The notes beneath the pieces were generated by a model. The model was given only the letters and a program-made list of their open reading frames with translations, did not search any database and was not told where the DNA came from. A stretch of DNA of 64,000 nt from Psammoneis japonica (Eukaryota): assembly GCA_008632985.1 (NCBI GenBank), contig QPGO01000019.1:62001-126000 (forward strand). The letters run 5' to 3'. The position numbers and the translations under genes were made by a program. Below, in pieces: positions 1-62,500 of this stretch (position 1 is the stretch's first letter; every line of letters starts with the position of its first letter).

Positions 1-2097
1 TAATAAACAAGAACCTCCATGCCCACTTTCTAGCAGGTTTTTCTAACTGCAAAAGTTCACACGACAAACCATTTGCAAAAAGAAACAACAAACAATGGAG
101 CTGGCAAACAGAAGCTGTTTGCAATCGCTTTGCGAGGAGGTTGGCACCTTGCCGGGGCCATGACGAGGAGAGGTGCCCCGCCGGACACACACACTTTGGA
201 AAAAAGCATGCCAGAAAACCAGTTTTTGCACACATGTTTTGCTTGCGTGGTTGCCTGGAGCACAAACTGCATTTTTTGCCCAGCATGGTGCCAGCGGCAC
301 AGAGAAGGGAAAAGCGACAGCAGCTTGTGAGGGGGGGGTCATGATCATGAGCCACTTCAAATGGCTTTCTGAAACAAGAATGGCCCGCACCCCGCATTTT
401 CAAGCAAGTTGGCAGCCTGCTTGCAAAACAAGGCAGCTTCTGAACAAGCTTTAGCTGCTTTTTGGGGGCTGATCTGTGCAGCACCCATTTTGAGCAGAGA
501 AAATCTAAAAGTTGTCCATCTCCCCCCTCTCTGCAGCGCGCAAAAACTCTCTCACAATGTGCGCATGCCACACACCAGGCCTGTGCACAGGAGGAGTCAT
601 CAATGAGGGGTTTCAGCAAAAACCATGTTCAGCTTTTGCAGAGCAAACAAAAACTTGGGATTTTTCAAATTCTGCACACATGTTTCTGCCAAATCTGATC
701 AGCCAACAAAATCTGGGGTGCAGATTTTCTGCGACGCAGCACCAAGGCAAAGGCGGGCAGCAAGCAAAGCCAAGTCATCACCAGCACAGGAGAAGAGCTG
801 CTCACCACCAATGGCTGTCACAGCTTCTGGCAATGGCCAAGAAATGGTTTTGTGATGATGACACAAGCACATCTTTTTGTGTGATTTGCAGCCAGCCATC
901 ATCATTTTGCCATTCTCCGGGGGGCTTGAAAGAGGCAACAAAGTCACAGGGCACAGCTGGGCAGTCTTGCCAAGAACAAGGGTTGTGCCACAACTCCCTT
1001 GCCCGCAGCAGCCTCCACAGCAAGTGCTGCAAATTGGCTGGACCCAGCACCTGCTGTTTTGTTTGTGGTCATTGTGGCTGAGCCACAGCCCACTTTGACA
1101 TCATGGGGTTGCAACAGATTTTGTCTTGGAAGAGCATGCTGTTTCCACCCAACAAAAAGTGGACTGTGGCAGCTGCCAGCCCCACAATGCAGGTTTCATG
1201 CTGTTGGTCAAAGAGAGTTGAGAGCTGTGCAATGGATGCTGGGGTTGCAGCCATGAATGTCGTCAGCTCTTGAGGCTTCTTGGAGCATGAGCATTGGCTG
1301 GGATTTGAGAATTTGACAACATCTGGTTGCGATGACACAGCACTGGAAACCACAACAAGCTCATTGATGACAGCTCAAAGAAGCAACCTGCCTTCAAAGA
1401 AGAGCGGCAAGCGACCACACAAGCAGGGTCAAAAGAATGACGTGCCAGTTGTTTGTCAGAACAACCAGGACTTGCCGGTGGCGAACACTGGACTTCTTGC
1501 CACACGGTGCAGGGGGCTCAGGATCTTGGAGCTGTGGTGCAATTGCTGGGCAGTTCACGAACTCTGTGCTCCAGCACCCCGCTTCTGTTCCTGCTGCCGA
1601 AGGTCCCACGGCACAAAGCTGTGCTGGCCATTTGGAAAATTGGGGTGCTGCAGCCAGCGGTCAGGTTGAAAAAGAGCTTGTTTGGAAAGACCTTGATGAC
1701 ATCAAGAATGAGCAGTGACAAGTCCTTGTCCTCACCAGCAAAACCAGGCATTCGAGCTCGACACAAGCAAGGAGAGGAGTCATCCATCGCAGGACTCCCC
1801 AGTGGCTGCAATCCTGTGCAAAATGGGAGCCCAGCAGAGGATGCATCCAGTGAAAGTTCAAGGCCCCTTGTGGCAGAGAAAGATGTGGGAGCATTGCAAC
1901 AATTGATGACTTTAGAGCTGCTGCGGTCTCTCTTGGTCTGCACGAGGTGCAAACACTCAACAAATTGTGCTTGCATCGAACGAACAAGATCGCACGACAC
2001 CAATGAATCAGTGCAAGACCTGTCATGTTTCTTCCATCACTTGAATGATCAAGCTCTTGCCGTTTCTGAGCTAAAAAAAGAGAAACAGAAACTTGCA

Positions 2098-3402
2098 CAA
2101 CTGATGACACTGACGCTTTCGACCAGGTCATTGACGAATCGATCGAGATTGACAACCTCCGCGAGGCGATTCGAAGGGAATGTCCTGGTGCTCTCAAGGA
2201 GCGCCAGGAACAAGGACTTGTGCCGGACCTTCCTGCCGAAATTATCCTTTGTCTTGTGGACGAGAATGTCACCCAGCCAAGCATCAAGGGGGTCATTGTT
2301 GACATTGTGGCGAATCCCCAGCCGGACGTCCAGACTGCCGCGTGGCGCGAGTGCATCCGTGGCAGCTTCTCATGCACCAAAGTTCACTCGTGCATTGCAG
2401 CTTGGTGATTGCCCGAACACCTTGAGCTTGGGCTCAGTGGCAGCCACTGTTTTCTGCCCTTTGACAAGCGTGCATGGAATCGGTTCATTGGGCTGTCGGA
2501 GGATCCTCGTCGCTTTTGTCACGACTTTGCGTTGGGTTGGACCGCTTGCGATGGATCCATTTGCAACACACAGCCACTGATGAGAGTCAATGTATCACGG
2601 CGACGTGTTGCAGCCTTTAAATGTCACAAAGGGCGTGACAAAAACAACCTTTTGTCTGCATGCATGCTGCATCATGAATTCACAGCGGAGTGGTACATCG
2701 TGACCACTGGGCAGGAGGCCAGGGGTTCGAAACCCTGAGTGGGAGTTGTCTGCAGCAACGTTGATCACTGTCGAACGCGTAAAACTCTGTGCAGTTCTGC
2801 ACGTTCCTTCGTACGAACCCACACTGTTCCGCCAAAACCGTGCAGTGTCAGCACACGTTAGTAAAGAGCCGCATGGACGCGTGGTGCATGGGGAGGAGTG
2901 CAGTGCACAGCTGCTGACAAGAGCCAATGTGTCACGGCGACGTGTTGCAGCCTTTAAATGTCACAAAGGGCGTGACAAAAATGACCTTTTGTCTGCATGC
3001 ATGCTGCACATTGTTTGCAAGAGCAAGTTTGAAATCAATGTTCTCTGCGACGAGCGCTGGGTGTCCGTCAAGAACATGTTCAACAAGGCCTGCGACGACT
3101 GCTTTGGGATCAAGCCAAATGAATTTACCCAACTGAGCAGGGTCGAAGGTGGCAAGAGCATCACCACGTTGACGGTTCACAGCAAGCAGGACAAGCAAAT
3201 CCTTGGTCAGGCCCTTCTTCCTGTGGTTGGCGAACCAATGCTGCACTCGGCTGATGGAACCTGCCCCGAGCACAAGCGCTGCGTGAGCCGCCAGCGGATG
3301 AAGGATCTCCAGTTGACGGCGGCGATTGAAGACGATGGGTCCTTCACCTCGTCAGCCAACAAGGAGAATGTTGTGCCGCACGTGTGCAAACACCTGCTGT
3401 GA
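2098..3402 (+). pseudogene. TpA-mutated paralog of the 3' part of the gene at 16279-17987, interrupted by a small insertion
   Basis: Aligns to about 17155-17987 (DESIEIDNLREAIR, SEDPRRF, QALLP.VGEPML, ENV). Tyr codons read as Cys/His (EY>EC, FYYDF>FCHDF, AYDGS>ACDGS), and there is a TGA in place of TGG. Confidence 0.9.
2564..3013. mobile_element. 450-bp non-autonomous element with ~105-bp terminal direct repeats and an internal tRNA-like segment
   Basis: Direct repeats at about 2567-2671 and 2904-3008. Flanked by duplicated TTTG(CAA) at 2560 and 3014. Removing it restores the host reading frame (GSI-C-KSKFEI). Confidence 0.75.
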
Positions 3403-3942
3403 GCTGAAGCAACAAGCGATTGGGGCAAGAGAATGAAAAGACAATGCTGTGGAGGTTGGATCACGTGACGGTTGACTCGCCGACTTTGTGGGCAGTGCAA
3501 CGCACATGCAACAGCATTGTGGCATGACTGCATCTGGTTTGTTGCAGTTTTGCAAACTTGTGTGGCACAACGGATTCATCCCACAATTCAGCACAAGACA
3601 ACCCAGCAGTCTAGAGTGGTCGTCGAGGCTCCCCACAGCATGGAATGCTGAATGCAGGCACCAACTGATTCCACACTCTCTGGCAGCAAAGCTCAATCTT
3701 GTTGTGAAATTGAAAGGAACTGTGTGTCGCCAGCAAGCAAACTGAAACATGACAACTCTGCGTTTTTTGTGGTCAAATTCAAAACGGTTGATTCATGCAG
3801 CAGAAAGTGCTCGAATGACCAGGCGCAGGCATGTGCGCCAGCACGTTTCTCCACACTGATGAGAAATCACAACAAACAATGAGGAGACACATCCAAGAGA
3901 CAAGCAGGCAACACATCATTTTGCCCTGGCTTCTCGTGTTAA

Positions 3943-4403
3943 GGTGGTGCGGGTGCAAAAGTGGGCCAGATTCTGCGCACGTAGAGATCAGCATGTTTTC
4001 CGCCAAAGTTGGTTCGCCAACTTGAGCCCTCTCCCGGATGATGGAAACTTGGACATTTCACATGACAAAGTGCTTTGACTGCTTGGTTGCACTCCCCTCG
4101 ACTTGTTTGGGGAGAGAAGTTGCAAGTTTTCACAGGTTTCTGAGAACATGCAACGAATCTAATCAGAAAGGTGCCAAAATCGTGACGTTCAAGTTTCAAA
4201 GAGCCGTGCAAAATGAGAAACCTGTGGAAACTTGCAACTTCTCTTAACAAACAAGTCGAGTGGAGTGTAACCAAGTTGTTTGAACACTTTGTCATGTGAA
4301 ATGTCCAAGTTTCCATCGTCCAGGAGAGCTTTGGCGATTTGCGCAGAAAATGTGCTGAGCTCTGCGCACGTAGAATCTGGCCCACTTTTGCACCCGCACC
4401 ACC
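3943..4403. mobile_element. Fold-back MITE with TTAA target duplication (Kolobok-like termini)
   Basis: TIR GGTGGTGCGGGTGCAAAAGTGGG at both ends, TTAA at 3939-3942 and 4404-4407, and a further internal inverted repeat at about 4036-4141 / 4216-4321. Confidence 0.85.
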
Positions 4404-4904
4404 TTAAATGAAACAGCGCAAAACACAGCATGAGACACCAACAAGCAACGCCCCACGTCACAGTTTTCTCAAAAAATGTCATTCATTGCTCAAGGGGATG
4501 TGGCTGGGACAACTCGACATCACGCAGAAAAGACTCTTCTCCCTGTTTGTAAGAGCAACATTCTCATGTCACATCAGACATTGTCTTGTTTGAGGAATGA
4601 ATGACATTTCTGCAGTGTCATGTCAAAATGGACATGACTTCATTTAGAGAAAAAAAACCATTTTTACAGTGTGGATTTACTTGCGTCACCTCATGCATGG
4701 CAAGGTGACGCAAGCAAATGACACTGCATCACCTGCCCACAAATGTCATTTCTGCAAAAACAATGTCTGGCCACACTGAGTGCAGGAGTGCACCAGTTTT
4801 GAGGCAGAGGATGCAAGCTTTGGTGCATGAGCCAAGTGCTTGTTGTGCATGATGGATGAAGAGTGTGGTGATGCCATTTCAAAGTTCAGTGCTGATTGAG
4901 AGAA

Positions 4905-5273
4905 AAGAAATGGACAACAAGATCTGAGCTTGGTGCAATGGCCAAGGCAACCCCGCCAAGCACGAGCATCAGCAAGAGCAAGGAAGGTGACAAAGGATGC
5001 AACAAACCTTGAGCACAAGAAAAGCTGTCAGCTTTGCTCTTCATGCTGAACAAGATCCCAGCTTGGTGCAATGGCCAAGGCAACCCTGCCCAGCACAAGT
5101 CAGTGAACAACAAGGTGACAAAGGATGCAACAAACCTTGAGCACAAGGAAAAAGCTGTCAGCTTTGCTCTTCATGTCGAACAAGACCCCAGCTTGGTGCA
5201 ACAGCCAAGGCAACTCCGCCAAGCACAAGTCAGTGAAGGAGGTGACAAAGGATGCAACAAACCTTGAGCACAA
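4905..5273. repeat. ~128-bp tandem repeat (about 3 units), continuing at 12386-12505 after the copia insertion
   Basis: Repeated unit aaagctgtcagctttgctcttcatg...ggtgacaaaggatgcaacaaaccttgagcacaa. Confidence 0.85.
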
Positions 5274-5549
5274 TGACAGAAAATGAAGGCAAATGGCAAG
5301 AACTCAAACAACAACTCCTTGCTGCTGTCTAAACAGCAGATGAGTCTCTGCTCAGAAACCGTTGCAGGAGCCGAAAGACGTGCAAGTCGGTGCAATCGGG
5401 CCACTGTCATCATTCTTGTGAGCCTTGTGGCTCGAAAGCAAACTACATCGCATGCGAACGCGCGGAACTAAAGCACACAAAACTGTGTGCGGCAAACTAA
5501 ACAGCGCGCGATGTTTTGCGCGCACCCAAATCCTGTTCAAATCCTGTCA
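5274..5549 (-). repeat. 3' LTR
   Basis: Direct repeat of 12110-12385 with TG...CA ends. Confidence 0.95.
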
Positions 5550-8500
5550 CTCCCCAGTTTGCTTGAGGAGTCACAGAAACAGATTCGACTTCGGATGGAA
5601 TGAAGTTCCAGAACATGAGGGGGCGGAGAAGGTCCCAGATTTGGGAGTGACCCCAATGCTTGCTGAGAATGTCAGCAGGGTTGCGGGAGCCTTCGATGAA
5701 GTGGAACTCAAGGTGACCAGAGGCAATTGCCTCACGCACACGGTGGAACGACAGTGCGGTGTGTCGCTTGTGTAACTTGGAGTGCGGGATGGTGGCACTG
5801 TCTACAACCGACTTGTTGTCACCGAACATGTAACTGACATTGCGGATCGGGACGCCAAGGTGGCACAGGGTGATGCGCAGGTCAACAATCTGCTTGACAC
5901 AAGTCCTTGCGGCAACAAATTCAGACCCGCAGGTCGCAGTCTCCACGGTGGCTTGCTTCTTAGAGAACCAATCAGCCGGGAATTTGTTGAGGAAGTGGAG
6001 CATTCCCATGACAGAGCGTCCGGTGAGCATGCAATGGTGCAAGTTTGCATCAACGTAGTGGGTGGCAGTGATGAACTTGCCAAGGGGCAGTGGAGCGTCC
6101 TTCGGGATCATCTCTTCTGCTTCGCCGCACACGGAATGCATCCATTCACAGGCCGGAGCAGGGAGATCCGAACAGTCGGGCTCTTCCGTGCGAACGCGGA
6201 GAGCGCCGTGTCGCATCTTGGAGAGGTGCCCACAGACGCGTTTGGCACGATCCAAGTGGCCTTGACGGGGTGCAGCTCGGAAGCTAGAGAGTGACATGAC
6301 GGCCGTGGCAATGTCAATTCGACCAAGGGACACTGCCCATTGGAGTGAGCCAACAAGAGACTGGAACTTGTGAATGCCATCGGGCTCCAGCAGTTCGGAA
6401 GTGTCCAGTTCGGGGTGGTCACCCTTCTCCAGAGGTGACAGGGCGTTGGTGGTGGGTTTCTCCCCAAACAGTCGGGTGCAGCTGTCGACCATGCGCTCGA
6501 TGCACTTGCGCGGAGACAGGCACAAGGTGCCGTCGGGATCCCGGGAAAAGTCGCAACCCAGATGGAACTCAATGGGTCCCGCACCCTTGAGCTTGAACTT
6601 GCACTTTTCCGTGAGAGTGTCGACGAAAGATTGAGGGTCCTTCGTGGCAATGGCGAGGTCATCCACATAAACGGCAATGCATTCACAGTGGTCGCCGTTC
6701 CTGCGCATCCAAATGTTGGGTTCGGCGCGGCAGGAGAAGAAGCCTTCAGCTCGCAGGCAGTCGGCGAAGCGCTCGTGCCAGCGGAGACCGGAGCTGCGCA
6801 GTCCACACAGGGCCTTGTGGATGACAAGGATGTGTCCTTCGAGTTTGCCAAATTTGGGTCCGGCTGCAATGTAGAGCTTCTCCTTGGTGGTGGCTTCAAG
6901 GCAGGCATTGCCAATGTCGGTGGCCCATGTCTCCAACTCGTTGAGTTCGGCCAGGAAAATCATCAGCCGAAGGCCACAGAGGGAGACCACTCCGGAGTGG
7001 ACACTGTCGATGGGTACGTCCGTGAGGTGCCCATCGGCTGCGAGTCGTGCCTTGTGGCGACCGTTGTGTTTCACGTCGAACACCAGGTGCACTCAGATCT
7101 TCTTGTGTCCAGCAGGAGGAGTGGAAGACTCGAAGGGCCCGCAGTCATGGAAGACTTCGTATTCCCCGAGTTGGTCCATCTCGAGATTAGTTGCGTCTCC
7201 CCATTTGCGGTTGCCGTTGCGTTCGTCCAGTGACATGGCGTGTTTGCAGTTCCGGGGAACTTCGCATCCGTGCTTGCAGCGAGGTGCAGTGCGGAAGGAG
7301 CGAAGCTTGGCTTGGTTGGCCATGCGAAACAGCTTCTTCTGGCGCCTCGCGATGGCGCGGAACCGCTTCCAGCCATCAGTGTCGAGAAGTCCGTTCTCTC
7401 GTGCATGGATGGCGCAGGTGACGGGGTCATCCTTGGCGATGATGGCAAGAGGCTCGGACGTGATCTCCCCACTTTCCCATTCAAGCATGATGTTGTAGCT
7501 TGAGCCTTTCCAGGTTGGGTCATGAGGCTTCAGAGGTCCTTCGTGTGACACGATGCGTCGGAATTTCCAAACAGCAGCGTCTTCGTCTTCTTGCTCAATG
7601 TGATTCATGATGTCGTTGCAGGCAAGGACTTCCTCGCATTCGTCATTGTTGACAGAGCAGACGAACTCAGTGAGCTCGGGATTGCCGTTCACTTTCCATT
7701 CGTGGTCTTCGACGGCCTTGACGATGCGAGCTCTGTGGCGTTGTCCGTCCTCTTGTGGCTGCATGAGGAAGGTGCGTCCGATGATGTCTTGCGGATCGAA
7801 AACTGGCATCTTGGGTGTCCTGATCTCCCCATCAGGAGAATCGATGGGGTTGTCGTCATGGCGAGATTTGATGATGGGTTCAGGTGGCTCCCCATCAGGA
7901 GGATCAAGACGCAGGTTTCGAACGGCAGGATCGGTGGCAGCGGATCGTACATTGGACCGGCAGAGGATCTTCTGAGTCTCATCAGAGAGAATCTTGAAGG
8001 GCATCTGGTGGCCGACATGCTCAGCAATGCCAACAAAGCGTCCACGCAACTCACGGGATTCGGACGGCCAATCAGAGTCATCGAGGTGGAAGCACACGGG
8101 TTCCCACCAGTGAAAGCGAAGCAATGGGCTGATGTCCGGGGTGGAGCCAGTGAGAGTCTCGAGGGGCGTGCGCCAGTGGAGACGTGGGGATGCTGTGTGG
8201 TTGAGTGTGAAGCACACGCACATGAGCGCCAGCAGCCATGTGTGGGCAGGCGAACTGAAATGATCCATGACAGTGTTCGCCATGCGCTTCACGGTCTGGT
8301 GTCGACGCTCGGCAAAGTTTTGGTGTTGCTGGTGAGGCTCACTTTGCCAGCTGGAGATGAAGAGGGCTCGTAGAATCCCGAGCACCTTGTTGCTGATCTC
8401 AACTTGAGCACGGTTGCCAATGAGTTTGGATGGGGCACCACGCTCACGGATCTGATCCTCGAGTGTGTTGACAAACTCCTTGTCCGTCTTGGTGCGCAGA

Positions 8501-11170
8501 CGTCAGTGACGGTAGACTCGGTGCCAACAAACAGTTGGGCGCTGGTGCAACCAGAGTCGACGGCCGGAGTGTCGGCATGAACGGCGTCAGTGGCGATGGG
8601 CTCGTTGCGGCGGTGCACATTGAGGGCGGGGTTGGGTGATTTGTGGGCCTTCCCAAGGTGTGCACCGGCGGGCATGCGGGCGTGCTGCGTGGTGCAGTCA
8701 AAAGTACGACGGACCGCATCGGCAGGTGGGAAGCCAAAGCAAGGCCGAAGAGACTCGAAGGGGGGGTCCTTGGGTTGCACAGTGCGCTCCGGGGGCGGGA
8801 CGTCGTCGTCCTTGGGGTCAATCGCGTGTAGATGACACTCGTAGAACACGTCGTCGTTCGGAATGAGGTGATCATCGAGGGCTGACGCGTGATCGGCAGA
8901 CAAGGAAGCGGACATGATGGTCTCGTTGACAACGACACGATGACGGCAGTTGCCGCATTCGTCAAACAGGTTGGCAGTGGGATCGTCCTGCAGGTCAGAG
9001 ATCGCGTCGCACCACTGGTCGTCGTCAGTGACAGAGTGATCGAGGACGGAAGGATCCCATGTGTCATCACCGGTGAGGGTGACATGGGGCAGGGTGTCCC
9101 ATTCGGCGTCAGTGTGAGGTCGCACAGCAACACAAGGCAGGCCGCCCTTGATGTCAATGGGGGTGACACAGCCATCAGGGGTGGCAATGCGTTGCAAGCC
9201 GTTGGGCACCTTGACAGAGCGATCGTTGACATCCTGTTTGCACCATTCGAGCTGGCCGCAGGAATGGATGGTCTTGCCCTTGCCCGTGCATGCGCACTGA
9301 TGGAGGATGGTGATGATGGGACCACGCTGGGTCTCAATGACGGCACCAGCGGTGACAATGGGGATGTCCACCAATTGATGGTCGTCAATGCCCTGAACGT
9401 CGACTTGGCGAGAGGTGCGTGCAATGACGCGAATGTCGTCGCCAGCAATGCCGCCGCCATTGGCCCCACGATTGACTGGAGCACCAGCGCGTGTGGAGCG
9501 ATGAGCAGAGGCAGAGCAAATGACATTGTGATTGTCAACGCGGCGGCAGGTGTGGCCGTTAAGTTCCATGTCATCGGTGGGAGCTGGCGGAGTAGAGGGA
9601 GCGGCGGATGGCCCCGGTCGACTAGCGTTGGGGGCTTGGTTGGGAGACAACAGACGTCGCAGATCACCGGGTGGCAGTGGCTTGCGCTTGGTGAGGTGCG
9701 CCAGGATGGGATTATCTGAAGTGGCACCCACATTTGGAGCGGGGTCACCAGAGGCAGCAGGAGTCGTGTTGGACAAGTTGACATCACCGTCACTCCCAAG
9801 GCGTTGGTCGTGAAGGTTGGCCGTGATGGACTCATGGCAGTTGCTGGCTCATGGGTTGCGGGGAGGCGGACGAGAATGCCCAAGGATGATCGCCTTGGAG
9901 GAATGGGGCAACGAATCCCAAATCCGTTGGTGGTCGGGAGGGAGACGTTTCCATTGGTCACCGGTGAGGCTGGGACCACGGGTGCAGGCAGCATTGGCCT
10001 GAAGGACGTCAATGTCGCTGTCAATGTCGTAGAACACATCATCGGACGGTTCCTCGGAGCAGACGTCGTGTGCGTGTGTGGCGCGTCGGGGAGCTCGAGG
10101 TGTCGTCTTGGGTTGAAACGTGCTGTCGCATTGAGCTGCCATGGAGCGGAGCAAGCCACAGCATTGATTGCATGTGAGGCTCTTGCCACTCTGCGCACGA
10201 TGCTGATCAGCTTGGTTCTTGACAGCACGGAGTTCCTCGACAGGGTGTGCGGCATTCTCGAGCATGACGCGCTTCTGTCCTTCAGAGAAGTGGTCGCTGG
10301 CCGGGATGAGTGCCTCGCACTTGCGCAACTGATCTTGCCAATGAAGGATGAACCCGTGGGTCAGACCTTTCCAAGCACCATCACCAAGACGTGCAGCGGT
10401 GAGGTGCGTGAGCAAGGTGGAGGACTCGACAGATGTGCGGGTGGAGGCAAGTGCATGCTCAGACAAGGCACGGTGGACAGTCTGGGCGTCAGAAGACCCC
10501 ACATTTTCGCGGATGAGAGCCTTGCCCTTGTCGGTGAGAAGGATGCATTCGAAGACGGCGAACATGTGCTTTTGCTGTTCAGCAAAGAGCAGTTTGTCTT
10601 CGGGGCTGGTCGGTTTGTACGACGAGTCTAGAATGCACTCGACGTCTTGGGCACGGGCTTGTGCCACAAGTGAGGTGTGCCAAGTGCACCACTGCTTGTC
10701 GGATTTGAGAGCCGTGAAAGCGGTGGGATCACGCTTGATGCCTCGCTTGTAGTCTCGCACCGGGTCGCGTGCCTTGGTCGGGTTGGTGACATGCGGAGGT
10801 GCGAGGGGTGAGCTGCCGATGGACACAGAAGACATGCAGTCGGGGCTGAGGCGGCAGGCAAGGAACTCGTCATGCATGAACAACGAGGAGTCATTGGCAA
10901 CGTCAAGACCTTCGTGTGCTTTGACAATGTGCAGACCAACTAGAGCTGCTAACATGTTCTCATAACCGCGGGGCAAAGGGATCACATCAGTGCCGTTGTC
11001 GTGCTCAAGCGAGTCAATTTTTGGGATGGCATGAACGTGAACAGTTCTTGATGCGAGTCCGTGCCGTCTTGGGCCAAAGCCAAACGAAGAGGGCTCCCAG
11101 CACCTTGGGCAAGCACGGTTCCAACAACGTGCTCGAAACCATCGGTTTGTTGCTGACGAGTGAGAACCAT
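5550..11170 (-). pseudogene. Copia gag-pol polyprotein, disrupted
   Basis: Gag (YKRGIKRDP), protease-like NRGANGG, integrase (SEPHQQHQNFAERR), RT (IAVYVDDL) and RNase H (YVDANL, GSEFVAA, GDNKSV, NPADILSK). Split across several ORFs by frameshifts and a stop. Confidence 0.93.
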
Positions 11171-12109
11171 GGCAGACAAAAGTGGTGTCAGGACAAGCAA
11201 TTCTTGTTGGGAAGCGAAGGCAGACTTGAAACTTGGGTGAGAATGGGCTTGACTTGAAATGGACTTGACTTGAAATCTTGAACTGCCTCAAAATCAGAAG
11301 TCGCCGGGCTGCACTGTCCCGTTCGTTGTCAAGTGCTAAACTTCCCATCCGGTCCGTAGAGTTGTGCCGGCACGTCCGAACCTGCAGCCAGTGGCGCTTT
11401 GGGTTGCTTGCGAGCGGAGCAGCGGGTTGTAAACCCCTGCAGGTGAGCTGACCAGAGGTGGACAAGACCCCCGAACCGTTCTCATTTTGTGTTGGTTGGA
11501 TTTCCCGATCAGGCTGGCCAGTTGACGCAGGCGTTGGGCGCTGCGGACGAATGAACAAACACGGGAAAACACCCTCGCCCCAACGCAGGCTGCAATCACG
11601 GTTGCTTGCTCTCACAGTCGTCCTCGTGGACCTGGTGGAACTGTGGAGCACCAGCAGTCCGGGGCAGATCAGGTGCAATGGACTTGGTGTGCTTGCAGAG
11701 TGGCAGCAAAACCGCAGTCCGAAGAGTGGGCACAAGTTCTTGGCCGTGAAGATGTGCACATGTGTGCATGTCTTCAGCGACGAAGATCCTTGAATGTGTG
11801 GGGTTCTTGACCGTCAACCATTGAACGGGTGTGTCAAGGGATGAGGATCAAGGACAGACTTGGATGTGACCGTTGAATGCATGTCTTCAGCAATCAAAGG
11901 CAGCACAATCAATCCAGACATCCAGCGGCAAGGAGACTTGACGGTGACGTTAACTTCCTGCCGATGCCCTGGTGTTGAATGCACGCAGACTTGCCGATGT
12001 GCGTAGAACATGTGCGGAGGTCCACGCAGAATTGACACAGCATCGTCGGTAAATCAATGACGACGATGGCGGTTGCTCAATGGGTTGACAATGAGCAAGA
12101 CTGTTAATC

Positions 12110-12385
12110 TGACAGAAAATGAAGGCAAGTGGCAAGAATTCAAACAACAACTCCTTGCTGCTGTCTAAATGGCAGATGAGTCTCCGCTCAGAGACCGTCA
12201 CAGGAGCCGAAAGACGTGCAAGTCGGTGCAATCGGGCCACTGTCATTGTTCTTGTGTGCCTTGTGGCTCGAAAGCAAACTGCATCACGCGCGAATGCGCG
12301 GAACTAAAGCACACAAAACTGTGCGCGGTAAACCAAACAGCGCGCGACATTTCGCGCGCACCCAAATCCTGTTCAAATCCTGTCA
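12110..12385 (-). repeat. 5' LTR
   Basis: Direct repeat of 5274-5549. Confidence 0.95.
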
Positions 12386-14124
12386 CACAAGAAAAAAGCT
12401 GTGTCAGCTTCACTCTTCATGCCAAACAAGATCCCAGCTTGGTGCAGCAGCCAAGGCAACCCCACCAAGCACAAGTCAGTGAACAAGGTGACAAAGGATG
12501 CAAAGAAAGCAGAGGTTCAGGGACTTCTTGGGTTTCTGTCAAAAGCAAAAAGGGCTTTCTTGAGGATCACAGAGTTTCTCAAGATGCTGGAGCTGCTCCA
12601 AAATGTTGACAACTGGAGCTGCCACAATGCAAGTGTCCTGCCACATGCTTGTGGCAACTTCGCCTCAATGGACGAATTGATGACACAGTCAACTTTGAGG
12701 TGAGTGACGATGTGTTTTCATCCCAGGTGAGAAATGCGCGTGCGGAGGTGAGACGTTTCGTCTGTCCCTTTTCCATCGCCGTGCTTTTTGTGAGAGCAAA
12801 TCTGACTGGACTTTCCCCCGATTTTTTGTTTCTTCTTTCCACAGACATGTTTATTTTGAAAAGCCAGCCGTTGTTCTCATTGGTTGAAGGGTGCGCACAA
12901 GAAAAGCGCTGTCTCGAAAGCGGCATTTTTTGGAGTGAAACTGACAGCCATCTGCTCGTTGTTGTCACTCTGGTGCATTTGAGAGACTGTTCTGCTGTTT
13001 CTTTCACCGAATCTGACTGCTTTGAAAGAATGCACGCATTGTTCATTGTGTGAAGAGCTCATGCCAAAAAGAACGGCGTTCTAACTCTGTCATTTGCATG
13101 AGAAAAATCGGGGGAACTGACTTCGCACGTGATTTTTTTGCGCGATCGGCCATTTCAAAGATCGACTGATTTGTCAACCTGTGTGGGATGCTTGAGTGAA
13201 TGAAACAATGGGATTGAAATGGCAGCATCAAAGTTCAATGTGTGTCCAGTCATTGTGTGATTTGACATGCCCAAGTGGAGTTAAAGATGAAACATTGACA
13301 AAATTTCACCGCTCAAAATGACCAGTTCTGTCTTAGAATAAAACAAAATGGCTGCAACACTGAGATGTCGCTGATGGTGTTGTTCTGCTTTACAACAATG
13401 AAACCATCACACTTGCATCTGAGATTCTTTGTCCTCACACACCCTCAAAACCAAACACATGACAATTCTCTTGTCGGTGGCGAAATCTGATGTTGTCGCG
13501 CGACCCAAAAGCGTTGTCCATGACGACTCAAAGTGCGGACGACACATCACAAGAATCACAGCAACGTGTCATAGAAACATTCTTCATTGTCAGCATCCGG
13601 TGTCAAGCAGATGGAGCAGCGCGTTGATGAGAATCCCACTTCGCAAGCTGAGGAAGAGAGAAAGAGGCATCAAAAATGTCATGAGTCAAAAGGCCATCCA
13701 CAAGGCACAACAAAAAACAAAGATCAAATTTTCAACCACATCATCGCATTGAGCGTTGTCTCATTGACCTGTCTCGGCATTCTTGCTTCTCAGTCACAAC
13801 ATCCATTGGTGCAAGAATGGACGAGTTCATGGCGACGGCATGGTGCCATTTTCGGTTTGCGCGAATTGTGGTTTGTGGTTCGAGACATGGAAAAATGTGT
13901 TTTCACTGTCATGGAGCTCGTTTTTTACTAAGATTTTTGGCACTGAATGTACGTCTCATGTAGAAACACGTAGAAAACCTCGTGATGTGTCCAAAAGTTT
14001 CTCACCTGGGATGAAAACACATCTGACACCCAAAAGGTCACAAAGAAGTGCTTGATTTTGCTTTGCAAACAAAAGCAAGGTGATCAAAAAAATGTGTTAG
14101 AAAAAGTGAGATCGTGTCCAGACC

Positions 14125-14735
14125 AGCAGCTTCAGGGTTTGGTGTTGAGTTTTTAGATGCTGCACTTGGCATTCTGTTGAACTGTGCCACCTTGTGACAT
14201 GGTTGTAAAAGGTGGAGAAACACGGTGTCTGCACCTCTCCCGCCACAAAGTCATGGTGGCAAAAAATGAGGAGCAGAGGCCAAGCTTTTTTGCACTTTTG
14301 TGGCCATGCAGCAGCTTCAGGGTGCAGTGTTGAGTTTTCAGATGTTGCACTCAGCATTCCATTGAACTGTGCCACCTTGTGATGTGATTGAAAAAAGTGG
14401 AGAAATGTGGTGTTTCGGCACCTCTCCCGCCACAAAGTCATGGCGGCAAAAAATGAGAAGCCAAGCTTTTTTGCACTTTTTTGTGGTGGCCATGATGCAG
14501 CAGCTTCAGGGTGCAGTGTTGAGTTTTTAGATGCTGCACTCAGAGCCTCAGCATTCCATTGAACTGTGCCACCTTGTGACATGACTGTAAAATGCAGGGA
14601 AACACTGTGTTGGCACCTCTCTCGACAAAGTCACGGCGGCAAAAAACAAGGAGGAATGGAGGTCAAGCCACCCCACATTTACACTGCTCTGCAGTGGCTT
14701 CAGGGTGCAGCACTGGGTTTTAAAAAGCTGCATCT
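14125..14735. repeat. ~185-bp tandem repeat, about 3.3 units
   Basis: Repeated gcagcttcagggtgcagtgttgagtttt...gaactgtgccaccttgtga...gcacctctcccgccacaaagtca. Confidence 0.85.
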
Positions 14736-15020
14736 GGCTTTCTGTTCAAGGTCAAAATCTCACTGGCTTCGAAAAGTGAGCTTTGGAACGAATCTGATCA
14801 CTGCAAACGCAACATGAGATTAGAAACAAGAATCGAACCCCAGGCCTCTGCAGTTTTCTCATTTTCTGCGAAGCGCGCTGCCGGCACCACTGAGCTTCCT
14901 CTTCACACCAAGAAATTGCGCAGCCAAGACGCAAGCAGGTCAAGCACCAGGTCCACAGAGCAACACACCCAGTCATCATAAATGTCCGGTGTTGTCACAG
15001 TGCTGTACATCCCTGCTCAC

Positions 15021-15331
15021 GCACACGAACCACCTGGTGGTCCGTGTGCATTTTTGGGTGCACACGAACCACCTGGTGGTTCGTGTGCACCCTGCGCGAA
15101 ATGCTGCGTAGATTTGCACCGAACAAATCTGAGTGCTGCAAATCCGACATGGGATCTGCGTGTTTGTGCCACTCAACACTGGCCACCGAGCCGGCAGTCT
15201 GTGCCGGCCGTCGTGAAAAATATTTTGTGTCAAAGAAAGAGTTCGTCAGGGCCGGTGAAGAACACCCCACTGCGATGCGACCGGCACAAAATGTGCGTAA
15301 ATGCACAGGAACCATCATGTGGTTCGTGTGC
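15021..15331. repeat. Three copies of a ~29-bp hairpin-forming motif
   Basis: GCACACGAACC-N7-GGTTCGTGTGC-like sequences at 15021, 15060 and 15303. Confidence 0.7.
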
Positions 15332-39253: not shown

Positions 39254-39289
39254 TCTTGTTCTGTTTTCAGACGCGCGCGGATGAGTCTG

Positions 39290-48397: not shown

Positions 48398-49779
48398 GAT
48401 GAGTGGGAGGAAGGCGAGGATGTCTGTGGTTTTTCGTGGCGCTTGTTTGTTCTGAAAGAATAAACTCGTCGACGATTGTGGGAGTGTACAAAATGTGACA
48501 GGAACCTGTTTGAATTTAAAAATAAAAAGAAGCAAGCCTGAAGAAACTCAACACAGGTAGTGGACTTGATGGCAAGTCGTTTAGTACAATGAACTGTCGA
48601 TTCATCGCCCATCGATCGAACGCTCATCCGCCGCACATCATCGATCATCGCCGTTTGATTTCAAGCGATGAAAAAGCGATGGAAGGTGGTGCGCGAACGC
48701 GCGCGCTTTCGAAGGGCCGCGCAGCCGCGCAGAGGAACAGAGCACAGCCAAGAAACAAAAAAAACATTTTGCCATCAATTCATGTGTGCTGGGGGCAAGT
48801 GCGTTCGGAGCTTTCTCTTCATCCTGTTTCTAACTAAAGCAGTCTCAAGAACATAAAAACGGTGGCTCATTCAACAAAAGCCCCCAGTGTTCAGTGATCT
48901 TGCAGCTGGCCCAGGGCTTTCAGCACTGGAACCTTGCACACCATGACCCCGCGCTTCTCACCTCTCTGGAGCAAGCCAGAGGACTCTCTCCAACTCCCGA
49001 TGCCATGGCTTTTCCTCCATCAGAGGTGACTTTTTTTTCTTTTTTGCAAGCCTGCAGATGCTTGACCAACTGTCAAGCCCAGGACAGATCTTGCCTGTCT
49101 TGGAAGCCTGCAGCTTGTTCCAGGAGGGGGGCTCAAGAGCTCAGCTCATCCAGCCCAACAAACAACAACAGCACGCACAACAAACCTTGCAAATCTCCCA
49201 TCTGCAGAGTGACATGGCCTGTCCACCCAGAGCTTTCATCATCATAGAAACACCCCATTGACTTGCCCAGCATCAGCCTTGGGCTCAATTGCTTCTGGTG
49301 CGCACTCAATGACGACACAGTGCATGGACATGATTCTGAAACTCAGAAGTCTTCGCAGCATCGTGACACTGAAGCAGAGGTGAAAGCCATTTGCTTGTGA
49401 TCAGATGACTGCCTGGCAAGAGACAAGGCATTTCTGTTGGATTTGGTGAAGGAACATCTTGCTCATTCGACACATCGCCTTTGCAGCGGGTTGGCCATGG
49501 TCAAACAAATGTTCAAGTCAAGCACCAGAGAAGCAAAACATTTTTGCTGCCAGAGGCACAAGAACCATCACCAATTGCTGCATGCTCCTGCCACACTGTC
49601 AATGTGCCAGGGGTGCAGGTTAGCTTGATGCTGGAGGCCAGTGTGCAAGTGCAGCAGCACTTTAAAAGCAGATTTTGGGGTTTTGTTTTGAGCCCAATTG
49701 CTTCTTTCTCTTTTTGGGGCTTTGCAAGAGAGTTTGGCAAAGGCTCTCCTGCTCCTGTGGCCTCGCCACCACCAGCGGC

Positions 49780-50700
49780 ACATTGTCAAGGATTTTTGTT
49801 GTCAATGAGACATCACCCACACATTGAACATGTTGGTGTGCCCTTTCTGCTTCCAGCAGATTCACAGCACAGGTGCTTCCAACTGCACCAACTTTGCAAG
49901 TGTCATTGGAAAAAGCTGTGCTGTCATTTCCAAAGATGCCGCTGCTGCCTTGAGCTCCAATGTTGAGAGCTTGAACAACCTTCCCTTGCCTCTCAATTGG
50001 CTCCTGCAATCCCACAGAGCCACCCCATTCTCATGTGATCAAAGTGCAGACTGGCATGTGCTGTGCTGTTAACTCAAGCAAAAATTGAGAGTGTGTGTAA
50101 TCTTGCAAAAGTCCTTGAGTGGGCCAATGCTTGACAAGATGTCATGCACATTGGGGAGAGCATTGGAGATGCAGGGTTTCTTGGGAATGTCCATGTGCTG
50201 CTGCTCCAGCTTGTGCCACTGGCTCATTCTTTTGTTGAAGAAATGTCTTGGGCTGCAAACAACTTTGTTTTCTTCATTTCCTTCAGCTCAGATGATGCTC
50301 TCCCAGCAACCAGATCCATCACATGCAGTGGCTGTTCTCTTCCAACAAGACGACTCTCTTGCAATTGTTGTTGGTTGTTTCCAACAAGCCCACCTGTCCT
50401 GCTGCCGCCAGAAACTGCACAAGTCACAAACTCTGTCAACAGCTGAGTTTGCAGCACCTTGGTGTTCAATGAGGCCTGCTCTGCCATGAAGCTCAAACCA
50501 AGTCATCCTTGTCACATTGACGCCAGCCACCAGATGCACAGCTGCCAACAATTTTGCACAACCACAACCTTTAAACTCTGCCATGCCTCCACCAACCATC
50601 CCTTTGCACTCAACTGTGCTGCCATGAGCAGAAGAGCCAGAAATCCTTGTGAACATGATGGAACATTGTTGAAGATGTTGTCATGCATCACTGCAAAGTC
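49780..50700 (-). pseudogene. Strongly decayed GLUG-family paralog in a TpA-free tract
   Basis: Residual GSTCAVNLLE and VSGGSRTGGLVG match the GLUG gene's C-terminal half. Confidence 0.6.
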
Positions 50701-51271
50701 CTTCCTCAGAAGCCAAGTGACAGGAGCTTGTCACACCAAGCCAGTCAAAAAAGCAGCACAAAAAAAGAAAGAGAGCAAGAAGAAGGAATTGCCTGGCTTC
50801 CATTTTCTCTGCCAAACTAATGTGCCATTCATTTGCAGTTGAGCAGCGCAGTGAAGGCTTCACATGTCCACACGCCATGGTGGCTGTTCTAGCTGGCTGG
50901 CTCTTGCTCTGGGCAGTGGCCACTGCATGCAGGGCAAGGAGAGAAGGAAGGAGGTGTCAGCCACACCAGGTGCTGATGCCAGCCAGCGACAGAAGGTGCC
51001 ACTAATTGATGGTAAAGTGACCACTGATCTCATGTGAATGGACCACTGATCTCGTGTGAATGGCTTGAAATCTGCCGTTTAGCCAAACGAAAACATCCGA
51101 AGCTCCAACATGCTGCGGAAGATGTTCGTCGCAAAGCGCATGAATTTAAAGCTTATCAGACTAAAGAATGAGTGCGTTCGCTTGTTTTTACGACTCACAA
51201 TGTTGTGGGTTTCTGTCCATTAGCCGTAGATACTGACTGCAAAGGCCAAAAAGATCTATTTTAAATGACAC

Positions 51272-59683: not shown

Positions 59684-60129
59684 AATTCCTGTTGAGGAGG
59701 CGGTATGTTAGTCGAGTCGACGATAATGCGAATGCTAGCTGAATGGTGACAACAGTGTCACTCTGTACTCACCTGTTCTGTCAATTGTTTTCTTGCATTC
59801 GTTGTGTTGGTTACGGTGTACGATACGACGTAGTTTTTTGTGAGCAAAATTCTGAGCAAAACACGACACACTTCCACATGAAATAACGAATAGGTAACGG
59901 TAACTCAAATACTTAAGTGATGTAAACGGCCATATGTAAAATATTTAAGCCTGGCACTAATATGCCCTAATCAAATGTGACATTTCTGACATTTTGACAT
60001 GGATTACTTAAATAAAGAAGTCATTCCTCAATTTTTTTAGCCACACTCATGACTAAAAAGGTCATGAGGTGGATTGAACAGAAACAAAGAGAAGCGAAAG
60101 CAGTTAGTACGAGGCGATCAATGGATCAA

Positions 60130-62500
60130 CCAGGTGGGGGCTTGTTGGGACCGTGAAGGAATGCCAGCGGGTGAGAATCATTTTACTGAAGGGACAGTCT
60201 TGGGGGGCAGCGAGAAAAGACTTGCTGGCCTTGTTGCCTCTTGGCTGCTGGTGCTGCTGGTGGTCAAAAAAGCCTTCCTCAAAAGAGTGAAGCGAAAAGT
60301 CCTCACCTCAACCACAGCTTGTTGGCTGACTCTCCATTGGTTGAGCAGAAGTTGTTGCGAGTTCTGAGAGCAAAATTTCCCAAAAATCCAAAGTGCACAT
60401 CAGAGTTGAAGGCCCCCCAGCTGATGAAAAGTCAAGCCAAAAAGCAGACATGCTCAAAAATTTCTTGGACCACCATGGGCAAAAGCCAGCTGCACCACAA
60501 AACTTGTGGCTGGAAAAAGTCAGCAACAAATTCATGACACAAGAGGCTGCAGGTGTGGACAGACCACAGCTGAAGAACAGATGTTTTGTCAAAACAAGAC
60601 AGCCGTCCATTTCTGCAATGGCCCCAGCTCTGGAGATTGAACCCTCACAACTGATCACAGATTTTTTCTTGTCTTTGACATTGCACTGTCCCTTTTCAGC
60701 TTTGTGCTGTGATCAGAGCCAACTTGCCTTTGAAAAGCCCTGGAGCAGCAACAAATTAGCTGGAGAGTCCTTGTGCAGTGGCTGGTGTTTCGGGAATCAG
60801 TGGCTGGGGAGGAGAAATGTGTTGACACCCACATGTCATGTTGTTGCATGAAGCCCAAGAAAGGTGGCTGGAGAATGCAGTGTCATTCTTGGCACACCTT
60901 TTGTGTGCAAGGGGGGGGTTGAGGAGGGGGGGGGGCTTTGTGTTCTCTTCTTCAGCATCAGAGCACATTTGCAAGTTGTCGTCTGTTTCCATGTTGTTGG
61001 TGGAGGGTGAGTTTCCAGCAAAGCTTTGGCTGGAGAGGTGCACCATGGAGACTGTGCACAGGAGAGAAATCAAAAAATGATCTCATGTTGGAGCTTCTGA
61101 TGAAAGAGAGTGGAAAAAAAGACTGGCAGTGTGTTGCAAAATTTCATCTCCAAAGCAACCATTGCAAGCAAAGATGTTTGACAAATGCAAATGTTGAGTG
61201 TGAAGTTGAGAACAATGGAGTGCCCCAAGCAATTGTGAGGGCCCCTGATTGTGAGCTCTTAGAATGTGGAGTTGCAGGCTTGCAAAGCCACAATTGCACA
61301 GAGTGTGCTGCCTGGTGGCTTTTGCAGGTGGTTGTTGGTGCTTGTCATTTCAGAGCAGTTTTCTCAAACTTTCATTGCACCCCTCAGCCAGATCTCTGAT
61401 GTTGACAGCATGGACATGAGTGTGGACATGGACACATGGATGGGCCACAGTTGCCCTGCAGAGGCAACAGTGGCAGCAAGAGAGCACAGACGGTGTGGAA
61501 AGCACCCTTTTGGCAACCACTCTTGCGTCAGGGCTCTTTGATCCATTGTCTGCCTCTGCTTGACCTGATCACAAGTCTGCCATGATTCTTTTGGATGCAA
61601 CTTGACAAATGTGTGGTGCACAAGCTTGCTGAAGTGCTCAGGCTCAATCCCACCCTGATGACTTTGGCAGCAAAATTGGCACACTTTTGTTCTTTCCAAA
61701 CTTCCTGCAGAAAACTCTTGCACAAGAAAATTCACACACAAGTCAGTTTTCTGCCCATCAATTTGCAGCAAAAATGATCAGAGCATTCTTGCATCAACAG
61801 CTGTTGGCCTCCACAATTTTTCTTCCAGGAGTGCAATCTTCTCTTGGTCTCCACATGCCCATTTCACCACACATGCCAGGCCAACAGCAGCAACAACAGC
61901 CAGCAACCACTGTTTTCAAGTGTGGTGCCACAGATTTGCTCCATTGCAGTCAGATGATGTCACAACAAGAAAGGCATTTCCCAGGGTTGCATTTGATGTG
62001 GTCATGCTGCACGTGCCTGCTGTGAAAAGCATGTGAGAAGAACAAGAAAAGGACAAGAAGGTCAGCCAGACTCTGTTGTGCAAAAAAGTGGCTGTGCACA
62101 CAGTTGTGAAGATTTGAAACTCCAAAAATGTGGGCAAAGGCATGAGGACAAGTTGAAGGATGTCACTCATGAAAGAAAAAGAAATGATGATTCAACAATC
62201 GGTGAGTCAGAAGAAGAACCTTGGTTGAGGACCATTGCTGGGGTGGCACACATGTGCGAGAGCACTGCGCATGTTCTTCCAGAGGCAGAGGAGCTTCTTT
62301 TTTGTTGGCATTGTCCATTGTTCACACACACACAACAACAACTTCAGTGGCCCCTTCTCTGCACACCTCACAGTGTATTTCTTTGCTCTTTGCAATGGAT
62401 TCAGGCCATTGTTGAGCCGCAAGAGTCAATTCTTCAACCGGACGAGATGTTGCAAAGGCACCACCACCGCTTGTTTGCGGACCAGCACACTTTCGCCTCC
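60130..62500. other. Unidentified decayed repeat tract lacking nearly all TpA and most CpG
   Basis: Composition only; no recognisable protein motif. Confidence 0.6.

Follow-up and report, generated by a model that had tools for sequence, protein, structure and literature searches.

The question that this locus raises is why parts of it hold almost no TpA. The window, by which we mean the whole stretch of 64,000 nucleotides analysed here (Psammoneis japonica, contig QPGO01000019.1, positions 62,001 to 126,000 of the forward strand), had been given a preliminary description that proposed a repeat-targeted hypermutation of TpA to TpG or CpA, a "reverse RIP". Using a two-state segmentation on TpA density, we found seven sharply bounded low-TpA tracts covering 28,142 of the 64,000 bp, which agree within about 200 bp with the positions in that description:

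1..15297, no strand, hypermutated tract 1: TpA observed/expected (o/e) 0.11, CpG o/e 0.72; a scrambled pseudogene copy, a palindrome, tandem repeats and a copia LTR retrotransposon
19498..22953, no strand, hypermutated tract 2: 5 TpA in 3,456 bp, CpG o/e 0.30; no domain recognisable in a domain search
26598..27735, no strand, hypermutated tract 3: tandem partial copy (26551-27480) of a Glug-motif gene
39238..41029, no strand, hypermutated tract 4: pseudo-copy of an RNA-dependent RNA polymerase (RdRP) gene (39291-39841 and 40231-40905), split by a mutated MITE (39842-40231)
43157..44768, no strand, hypermutated tract 5: repeat-family DNA, contig depth 900-42,000, with a MITE-end fragment at 44236-44328
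48586..51002, no strand, hypermutated tract 6: CpG o/e 0.31; mostly single-copy (contig depth 61-69, one bin at 395)
60109..62538, no strand, hypermutated tract 7: 4 TpA in 2,430 bp, CpG o/e 0.18; no domain recognisable in a domain search

The TpA o/e is 0.02-0.11 in the tracts (136 TpA in 28,135 dinucleotide positions) and 0.51-0.65 in the rest of the window (1,443 in 35,851). At the edges TpA drops from one every ~20 bp to none over more than 100 bp. Within the tracts the deficit of TA+CG (0.0547 per bp) is balanced by the excess of TG+CA (0.0559 per bp), and the CpG o/e ranges from 0.18 to 0.72. All of the recognisable contents are repeats or duplicates, namely the copia element, MITEs and three gene duplicates.

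Such blocks could be a sequencing or assembly artefact, arising if native long reads miscall a modified base so that TA is written as TG or CA. A strand-symmetric miscall would yield roughly equal numbers of the two, and the scattered indels between the window and contigs of a public run (X1), such as 9 gaps within 4,315 bp, are compatible with a long-read assembly. The X1 evidence comes from one sample of one study, possibly the assembly's own source, with the platform not on record; the contigs have a depth of about 55 and reach 315 kb, so we take them to be built from accurate reads. Over two segments of 623 bp and 990 bp they differ from the tracts at 5 positions each; a gene-like TpA density would predict about 25 and 36 TpA there. 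They also span the boundaries of tract 6 at both 48586 and 51002. Because they reproduce the tract sequence, a base-calling error is unlikely. Environmental assemblies carry the same signature, as does Bigelowiella natans, where the preprint considered below called it from Illumina data. The artefact explanation is thus largely refuted and we regard it as very improbable; the tracts are real genomic blocks in the diatom, and their low TpA is confirmed.

The direction of the change can be read from four pairs in the window that consist of an intact and a mutated copy. The sequences used, apart from the copies already listed with tracts 3 and 4, were:

16494..18916, + strand, intact parent gene and downstream sequence: 497-aa ORF, normal TpA
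1937..3916, + strand, mutated, rearranged partial copy of that gene and its downstream region (17158-18916)
24601..26346, + strand, intact parent segment of the Glug-motif gene: ORF 23953-26199
45280..47160, - strand, intact RdRP gene: PF05183, parent of the copy in tract 4
38864..39253, + strand, intact 390-bp MITE: 30-nt terminal inverted repeats, normal TpA, adjoining tract 4

The 497-aa ORF has no Pfam family. Taking the four pairs together, 147 ancestral TpA became 65 TG and 57 CA, with 7 kept and 18 changed otherwise. The mutated copies retain 0/57, 3/34, 3/29 and 1/29 of their TpA, and nearly all others are TG or CA: the copy at 1937..3916 has 26 CA and 24 TG for the 57 TpA of its parent, and the Glug copy has 16 CA and 12 TG for 34. 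The preliminary description had polarised the change in just this way, as A>G on either strand, and its count for the first ~100 bp of the MITE is right (4 TG, 2 CA and 1 kept out of 7). The change is also strongly specific to TpA: per strand, the frequency of A>G is 127/297 (0.43) at TpA and 0.05-0.08 in other contexts.

The copia element allows us to ask when the changes occurred, and on which molecule. Its parts are:

5274..12386, - strand, Ty1/copia-type LTR retrotransposon: RVT_2 domain in ORF 5497-7092(-)
5274..5550, no strand, LTR copy A: 277 bp
12110..12386, no strand, LTR copy B: 277 bp, 92% identical to copy A

The two LTRs differ by 22 substitutions, 21 of them transitions. Fourteen of 18 events swap among TA, TG, CA and CG, including 4 discordances of TG versus CA, so the changes postdate integration. 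This bears out the earlier claim that DNA is the substrate, and the MITE (a DNA transposon) and the gene duplicates carry the signature too. Against an environmental relative (L003), 133 TpA became 40 CA and 32 TG with 10 kept, so the element-sense orientation yields both products. Low TpA is not a trait of the family, because the TpA o/e is 0.48-1.15 in 78 of the 80 related copia loci from environmental data. The signature does recur in two independent metagenome contigs (L074 and L056) and in five Tyr-poor proteins from ENA/JGI assemblies. Erasure of Tyr codons, which had also been claimed, holds for the reverse transcriptase: at 13 columns where Tyr is conserved among 88 outgroup reverse transcriptases, the element has 1 Tyr, 6 Cys (TGY), 3 His (CAY), 2 Phe and 1 Ile.

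We also looked at the bases around the changed sites. The 3' neighbour is C for 56 mutated A and for 20 unmutated A of the same sites (P=1e-6), a difference seen in each of the four pairs, and G is the least favoured. Surviving TpA in the tracts are depleted in 3' pyrimidines (chi-square 65.5), and the product with the largest excess is TGC, at 26.8 per kb. The locus adds a T-A-Y context preference to TpA hypermutation. Changes in the pairs also fall in strand-coordinated runs (50 observed vs 61.5 +/- 5.2 expected, P about 0.012-0.017). In comparisons with relatives of 64-69% identity, neither the T-A-C bias (TAC>TGC pooled 41/87) nor the coordination of runs (four runs tests, P = 0.11-0.72) was replicated.

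Most tracts carry a second signature, CpG to TpG or CpA, which the preliminary description underplayed. Its statement that nearly all CpG persist does not hold generally: 134 of 238 CpG are altered in the pairs, where C>T is 0.23 at CpG vs 0.06-0.08 in other contexts. Ordinary decay of methylated CpG, as in silenced transposons, is a second process superimposed on most tracts, and diatom transposable elements are reported as CG-methylated (PMC9998398). This decay is unable to remove TpA, and the two losses are separable, because the copia interior has a TpA o/e of about 0.1 with a CpG o/e of 0.8-1.0 (GC 56-60%) while environmental loci L011 and L004 show the reverse (CpG o/e 0.26 and 0.20, TpA 0.5). 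The results support the earlier view that neither CpG decay nor RIP accounts for the TpA loss.

The preliminary description knew of no system of this kind, which is now outdated. A 2026 preprint by Mettrop et al. reports exactly this spectrum de novo, in silent viral inserts of B. natans (bioRxiv 10.64898/2026.01.13.699255), and so far this unrelated alga is the only reported case of TpA-targeted mutation. As given there, 230 of 231 SNMs in two viral regions of mutation-accumulation lines were A>G or T>C, each of them on TpA, only some lines were affected, and the rate was 6e-7 per site per generation. The main target was single-copy, TpA-depleted CDS were enriched for RT and DDE domains, and the authors propose an adenine deaminase defence. 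The likeness to our tracts is close: near-exclusive A:T>G:C at TpA, giving TpG or CpA by strand, in discrete regions beside normal DNA, with a lasting shortage of TpA and surplus of CpA+TpG, and with RT and DDE-type sequences among the depleted CDS in what is read as defence against invading DNA. There are differences. B. natans is a chlorarachniophyte (Rhizaria) with a giant-virus/virophage insert as target, whereas here a diatom (Stramenopila) has a copia element, MITEs and partial gene duplicates hit; depletion is near saturation here (o/e 0.02-0.11), compared with a rho of 0.45 in the B. natans NCLDV insert; and de novo events were observed there but are only inferred in the diatom. Our account of the diatom tracts includes the T-A-Y flank preference and CpG co-decay; the words CpG, trinucleotide and diatom are absent from the main text of the preprint, and its supplements might hold context data. 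We conclude that the diatom locus is the same kind of process in another lineage with other targets.

We think it probable, if well short of certain, that the locus records a region-confined, DNA-level conversion of TpA to TpG or CpA by adenine deamination directed at silent DNA, overlaid by CpG decay. The process has converted nearly every TpA of the tracts (A:T>G:C, either strand) after the sequences were in place. It has affected the retrotransposon, copies of the MITE, the partial duplicates of genes and some unannotated DNA, and has spared neighbouring genes and intergenic DNA. The most likely chemistry is that an enzyme deaminates adenine in DNA to hypoxanthine, reading 5'-T-A-Y-3' (3' C > T > A, G). 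Its target would be DNA that is silent in transcription or packed as heterochromatin, rather than repeats as such, and it would probably act in episodes. The deaminase step and the targeting are our inference.

The model of the preliminary description, in which duplicates are found by pairing as in RIP and then mutated with other chemistry, draws on the fact that every identifiable tract content is a repeat or duplicate. Fungal RIP resembles the tracts in its dense, inactivating and irreversible transitions in transposon or duplicate DNA with sharp edges against genes. However, RIP turns C into T, chiefly at CpA, and produces TpA and AT-rich DNA, whereas the tracts lose TpA with GC unchanged or raised; and RIP mutates both duplicates after homology recognition, whereas in each of the three gene duplicates here only one copy is mutated. 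An unmutated MITE lies beside tract 4 although its family is very high-copy (summed contig depth about 1e5 vs about 55 for single-copy DNA), parts of tracts (40273-40806 and 48817-50952) are at single-copy depth, and the main B. natans target is given as single-copy. With a single member of every duplicate mutated, a RIP-like trigger is not supported, and we consider homology-triggered scanning improbable.

Other routes would place the damage on a different base or molecule. Oxidised thymines mispair with G, and some protists carry them. In silenced DNA, T at TpA could be enzymatically modified (a TET/JBP-type dioxygenase might, for example, oxidise it to 5-hydroxymethyl- or 5-formyluracil) and turn to C at replication, a counterpart at TpA of methyl-CpG decay. 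TpA and CpG alike are pyrimidine-purine palindromes that end in TG/CA with exact mass balance, the symmetric outcome fits a mark on both strands, and the context could equally be written R-T-A. Against this, the two losses are uncoupled between elements, and bursts in only some B. natans lines, as the preprint gives them, fit an induced enzyme better than steady decay; we regard a thymine mark as unlikely, though not negligible. The scarcity of CTAG in E. coli has been ascribed to very-short-patch repair, and a thymine-mismatch glycosylase or endonuclease that guards methylated CpG and is drawn to methylated heterochromatin might likewise over-correct, resolving replication T:G mispairs at TpA to C:G. 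Its products would be TG and CA, and the tracts largely overlap DNA that has decayed at CpG and is presumably methylated; yet the copia interior lost TpA without CpG decay, CpG-decayed environmental loci retain TpA, and conversion that leaves 7/147 TpA, along with the B. natans rate as reported, seem too high for replication mispairs alone. We hold this to be quite improbable. Finally, A-to-I editing of element transcripts by an ADAR/ADAT-type enzyme could be fixed in DNA by retrotransposition, and one target is a retrotransposon. ADAR favours a 3' G, the least favoured neighbour here, and the LTRs diverged independently. The strand symmetry in element-sense orientation and the non-retro targets already contradict this route, to which we give almost no credence, even with the ADAR 5' U preference noted in the discussion of the preprint (bioRxiv 10.64898/2026.01.13.699255).

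Returning to adenine deamination, the TadA/ADAT2 fold can carry out A-to-I on DNA, examples being evolved TadA base editors and amphioxus ADAT2. A TadA-8e variant edits A preferentially in YAC, close to the T-A-C optimum here (PMC13109818), and amphioxus ADAT2 on DNA favours A in GAA and C in TCG (PMC10354150). The tracts show neither ADAT2 preference (TCG 0.20, not above other NCG), and we counted GAA, rather than TpA, against the deaminase reading. Like APOBEC3 on minus-strand cDNA and ADAR on dsRNA, which the preprint also discusses, the proposed activity would cripple selfish nucleic acids by context-specific deamination. Those enzymes hit replication intermediates, APOBEC3 leaving a single-strand C>U signature and ADAR an RNA-level one, whereas the tracts are resident chromosomal DNA changed on both strands. 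The consequences are that Tyr codons are lost to Cys or His, TAA and TAG stops disappear, and elements are irreversibly inactivated. The intact MITE adjoining a saturated tract may weigh against ongoing activity.

Over the whole 64-kb window the observed/expected ratio (o/e) was 0.38 for TpA and 1.37 for TG/CA. Per kb, TpA o/e splits into two classes, 0.00-0.18 and 0.5-0.84, and a two-state segmentation by TpA density called seven TpA-poor tracts:

1-15297, tract 1
19498-22953, tract 2
26598-27735, tract 3
39238-41029, tract 4
43157-44768, tract 5
48586-51002, tract 6
60109-62538, tract 7

With a total of 28,142 bp, the tracts take up 44% of the window; they contain 136 TpA, compared with 1,443 elsewhere. 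The preliminary description had drawn the same blocks, and our segmentation edges differ from its coordinates by about 200 bp at most. The edges are sharp, going from a TpA every 20 bp or so to none over more than 100 bp, and the hypermutation is limited to these discrete blocks while the adjoining DNA has a normal spectrum. Inside the tracts, the deficit of TA+CG (0.0547/bp) is balanced by the excess of TG+CA (0.0559/bp).

The contents that we could identify were a Ty1/copia-type LTR retrotransposon (the copia element), MITEs and three partial gene duplicates. A domain scan of the ORFs found no recognisable content in four tracts or tract parts; RVT_2 of the copia element was the sole domain found in tract ORFs, with no Pfam match at E<=0.01 in the 40 further tract ORFs. 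TAA/TAG stops occur at 2.1/1.67 per kb in the tracts and 9.3/8.9 per kb outside. Because these stops are lost, long ORFs overlap in several tract frames (for example 5497-11813 and 19498-22953), and gene finders would report such spurious ORFs as genes. Tract 1 also has a palindrome at 3939-4407 (469 bp, 77% self-complementary) and, within a scrambled pseudogene copy, a direct repeat (2569-2671/2906-3008, 103 bp, 92% identical) around about 230 bp that may be a small insertion.

Self-comparison of the window gave four pairs that each combine a copy in normal DNA with a tract copy:

Gene pair: intact 17158-18916, tract copy 1937-3916, TpA kept 0/57
Glug gene pair: intact 24601-26346, tract copy 26551-27480, TpA kept 3/34
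MITE pair: intact 38864-39253, tract copy 39842-40231, TpA kept 3/29
RdRP gene pair: intact 45042-46251, tract copy 39291-40905, TpA kept 1/29

Nearly all of the TpA that were not kept are TG or CA in the tract copy. Among 147 ancestral TpA with clean flanks, 65 became TG and 57 became CA (122/147 together), 7 were kept and 18 had other fates. Counted per strand, A>G occurred at 127 of 297 As in TpA (0.43), and at 0.07, 0.08 and 0.05 of the As that follow A, C and G. Spectra with no excess of A>G at TpA over other A contexts would have refuted the preliminary description, and the pairs do have this excess. Because the copies are old, they also carry background changes and CpG decay. About 0.07 of the A sites outside TpA have changed to G, while only 7/147 TpA survive. 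A 390-bp MITE with 30-nt terminal inverted repeats carries the signature of TpA loss in its tract copy.

One identified target is in tract 1:

5274-12386, minus strand, copia element with an RVT_2 domain

We searched 1.84 billion representative proteins for its relatives, the best of which were up to 67% identical, and compared residue composition across the aligned region in the 108 relatives that aligned over at least 300 aa. The window ORF has 0.8% Tyr against a median of 4.5% in these relatives, 3.8% Cys against 1.4%, and 5.5% His against 3.2%. Tyr is present in at least 60% of 88 outgroups at 13 columns; the residues of the window there are one Tyr, six Cys (TGY codons), three His (CAY), two Phe and one Ile. 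Other conserved residues of the reverse transcriptase are mostly retained (Leu 20/20, Gly 18/19, Trp 4/4). This copia family as such is not low in TpA, since TpA o/e is 0.48-1.15 in 78 of 80 related metagenome loci. For these loci we used the smaller query alignment (A2) because the first one (A1) was too divergent. Relative to the closest of them, L003 (69% DNA identity), 133 TpA were reduced to 10, with 40 now CA and 32 now TG in element-sense orientation.

Comparison of the element's two 277-bp LTRs, which are 92% identical, gave 22 substitutions: 21 transitions and one transversion. Interchanges among TA, TG, CA and CG make up 14 of 18 events, and at four sites one copy has TG where the other has CA. 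The LTRs of a retrotransposon start out identical when it integrates, so these changes arose afterwards and separately in each LTR. Tandem units of about 118 bp lie beside the LTRs, three before the left one and one after the right (4916-5276, 12386-12503), there is a separate tandem array at 14124-14732, and the 277-bp LTR core may not mark the true ends of the element.

Some metagenome relatives have the same footprint. TpA o/e is 0.13 over the whole of locus L074, and compared with L066 its 80 TpA are reduced to 1, with 27 CA and 25 TG. Locus L056 is TpA-depleted over positions 1-1200 (o/e 0.09-0.30) and then runs at about 0.5, so it may contain a tract boundary near 1.2 kb. Five relatives from ENA and JGI assemblies are Tyr-poor and Cys/His-rich. 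These five, L074 and L056 may all be from the same species as the window.

Base-calling error is an unlikely source of the TpA loss. The stretch is present in three public runs, all of one sample and one study. Run X1 gave contigs as long as 315 kb, with a word depth of about 55 on single-copy DNA; we consider its reads accurate on this ground, although its platform is unrecorded and the assembly itself may derive from this run. X1 agrees with the tract sequence to within 5 differences in 623 bp at 43219-43840 and 5 in 990 bp at 50099-51088, and one 4,315-bp contig spans from the RdRP gene past the tract boundary at 48586 with 10 differences. At gene-like density, the tract parts of these three matches would be expected to hold about 25, 36 and 24 TpA. 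The footprint in L074, L056 and the five relatives is independent evidence against an artefact. Tract cover in runs X2 and X3 was too small to add evidence. Over 36814-51088, the window differs from X1 contigs by 0.2-0.8% in long single-copy pieces, with 1-bp indels (9 gaps in the 4,315 bp), through either heterozygosity or errors left in the assembly.

Most tracts are also low in CpG (o/e 0.18-0.72), and in the pairs 134 of 238 CpG have changed, with C>T at 0.23 in CpG and 0.06-0.08 in other C contexts and no TCG bias in C>T at CpG across the four pairs. Methylation of TEs at CG by DNMT5a is described for another diatom, Phaeodactylum (PMC9998398). Decay of methyl-CpG accounts for the CpG loss only and not for the TpA loss. 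The interior of the copia element has lost its TpA and still has a CpG o/e of 0.8-1.0. Two related loci have decayed at CpG only: L011 (CpG o/e 0.26, TpA o/e 0.50) and L004 (CpG o/e 0.20, TpA o/e 0.51) keep ordinary TpA. The decay of CpG is an overlay separate from the TpA loss.

A different route to A>G changes is RNA editing by ADAR or ADAT that is then fixed by retrotransposition. We rejected this explanation: in the copia element both strands are changed (40 CA and 32 TG, element-sense) and the two LTRs diverged independently, and editing followed by reverse transcription would also have to explain the 390-bp MITE and plain gene duplicates, which are changed too. Fungal RIP is a poor match in its chemistry, as it is C>T mostly at CpA and creates TpA, whereas here C>T at CpA is 0.06, equal to background, and TpA is destroyed. 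RIP also mutates both copies of a duplicate. In our window each of the three gene duplicates has a parent that keeps normal TpA (16494-18916, 24601-26346 and 45042-46251), so the homology-triggered targeting implied by the preliminary description's 'reverse-RIP' is not borne out. Pairing of this kind is further opposed by the intact MITE, which adjoins tract 4 and belongs to a family with a summed contig depth of about 1e5, and by tract parts at single-copy depth (40273-40806, 48817-50952). The observation made in that description is confirmed, and its interpretation is supported only in part.

Of the two As at a TpA, the one that mutates is more often the one with a 3' pyrimidine. At the same sites, C follows 56 mutated As and 20 unmutated As (Fisher P=1e-6), a bias seen in each of the four pairs, and G follows 15 and 41. 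TpA that survive in the tracts are short of 3' T and C (chi-square 65.5, P=4e-14), and the largest product excess is TGC, at 26.8 per kb overall and 18.9 per kb within the copia element. Neighboring events formed 50 strand runs where 61.5 +/- 5.2 were expected (P about 0.012-0.017). Neither pattern was replicated against relatives of 64-69% identity (TAC>TGC 18/34, 8/22, 6/14 and 9/17; runs tests P = 0.11-0.72), and we attribute this to uncertain ancestral flanks. We consider the T-A-Y preference (mutated A with a 5' T and a 3' pyrimidine) probable, and coordination of neighboring events by strand is modest and tentative.

The closest precedent is a bioRxiv preprint on Bigelowiella natans (10.64898/2026.01.13.699255). 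It reports that 231 of 302 nuclear SNMs in mutation-accumulation lines fell within silent inserts, a 186-kb giant virus and a 25-kb virophage, and 230 of those 231 were A>G or T>C, every one on TpA. De novo changes in the inserts came in episodes, in some lines only, at about 6e-7 per site per generation, some 1000-fold above background. The genome had 124 TpA-depleted clusters, with RT and DDE domains enriched in 324 TpA-depleted CDS, and an ADAT2-like adenine deaminase was proposed as the agent. CpG, diatoms and trinucleotides are not mentioned in the preprint's main text. This preprint was the only account of TpA-targeted hypermutation in the literature we searched, which took in few subscription journals, and none concerned diatoms.

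As far as the preprint goes, the two cases are alike in having A:T>G:C concentrated on TpA (122/147 to TG or CA in the diatom), both TpG and CpA products (65 TG and 57 CA), discrete regions beside normal DNA, and foreign or selfish targets, to which the diatom adds its three partial gene duplicates. They are unlike in lineage, in the near-saturated TpA loss of the diatom and in its targets, which are transposons and pseudogenes. The diatom tracts represent a very recently described kind of hypermutation, now in a new lineage with new targets, and we are fairly confident both that they are real and that they belong with the B. natans case. From the silent viral insert of that species, we infer by analogy that the process may be aimed at silent chromatin and act in episodes.

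The agent could be an adenine deaminase, which we offer as a tentative suggestion. A TadA-8e variant is described as preferring YAC (PMC13109818) and amphioxus ADAT2 acting on DNA prefers GAA and TCG (PMC10354150), so the TadA/ADAT2 family is plausible as the agent but not demonstrated. No deaminase domain was present among the 79 window ORFs scanned. More doubtful still is the full picture, a dedicated DNA adenine-deaminase defence with 5'-T-A-Y-3' specificity, guided by silent chromatin and not by homology, that would permanently disable transposons, integrated viruses and dead gene copies and be shared by, or recurrent in, distant SAR lineages (diatoms and chlorarachniophytes). If true, fungal RIP and APOBEC restriction would have in it an 'A-branch' counterpart, and DNA adenine editors a natural source.

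TpA hypermutation is not peculiar to one species or to viral inserts, and the diatom case links it to ordinary transposons and pseudogenes. Any candidate enzyme must match the footprints here: a probable T-A-Y preference, changes on either strand of DNA already integrated, and a course independent of CpG decay. Because diatoms include genetically tractable models, the question of the enzyme and its targeting becomes testable. In practice, such tracts bias the ages that LTR divergence gives for TEs and conceal TE proteins from domain searches.

Genes in the window have few introns, and the plastid-related CGL160 is among them. A protein search with the RdRP returned two unnamed matches, neither above 40% identity. 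A hypermutated partial copy of its gene, a component of RNAi (45280-47160, minus strand), lies 5 kb away at 39291-40905. For the DUF7467 protein we had only weak leads to bacterial Ig-like proteins (scores 0.76-0.77 in a protein atlas), and we set these aside. At 47258-48397 (minus strand) is a KOW-motif protein with internally repeated Ser/Pro-rich segments, and the DNA repeats span 47263-48373. Acid_PPase (MDP1) and cold-shock domains adjoin at 35803-37490 (plus strand) in two overlapping frames. The best matches of MDP1 (identity up to 58%) are in proteins named for Attheya, Entomoneis, Fistulifera, Epithemia, Amphora and Mayamaea. The source of the window is therefore a diatom and not Bigelowiella, and its proteome is missing from the database. 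Most diatom homologues have the two domains fused, so the window has a short intron or a frameshift at this position.
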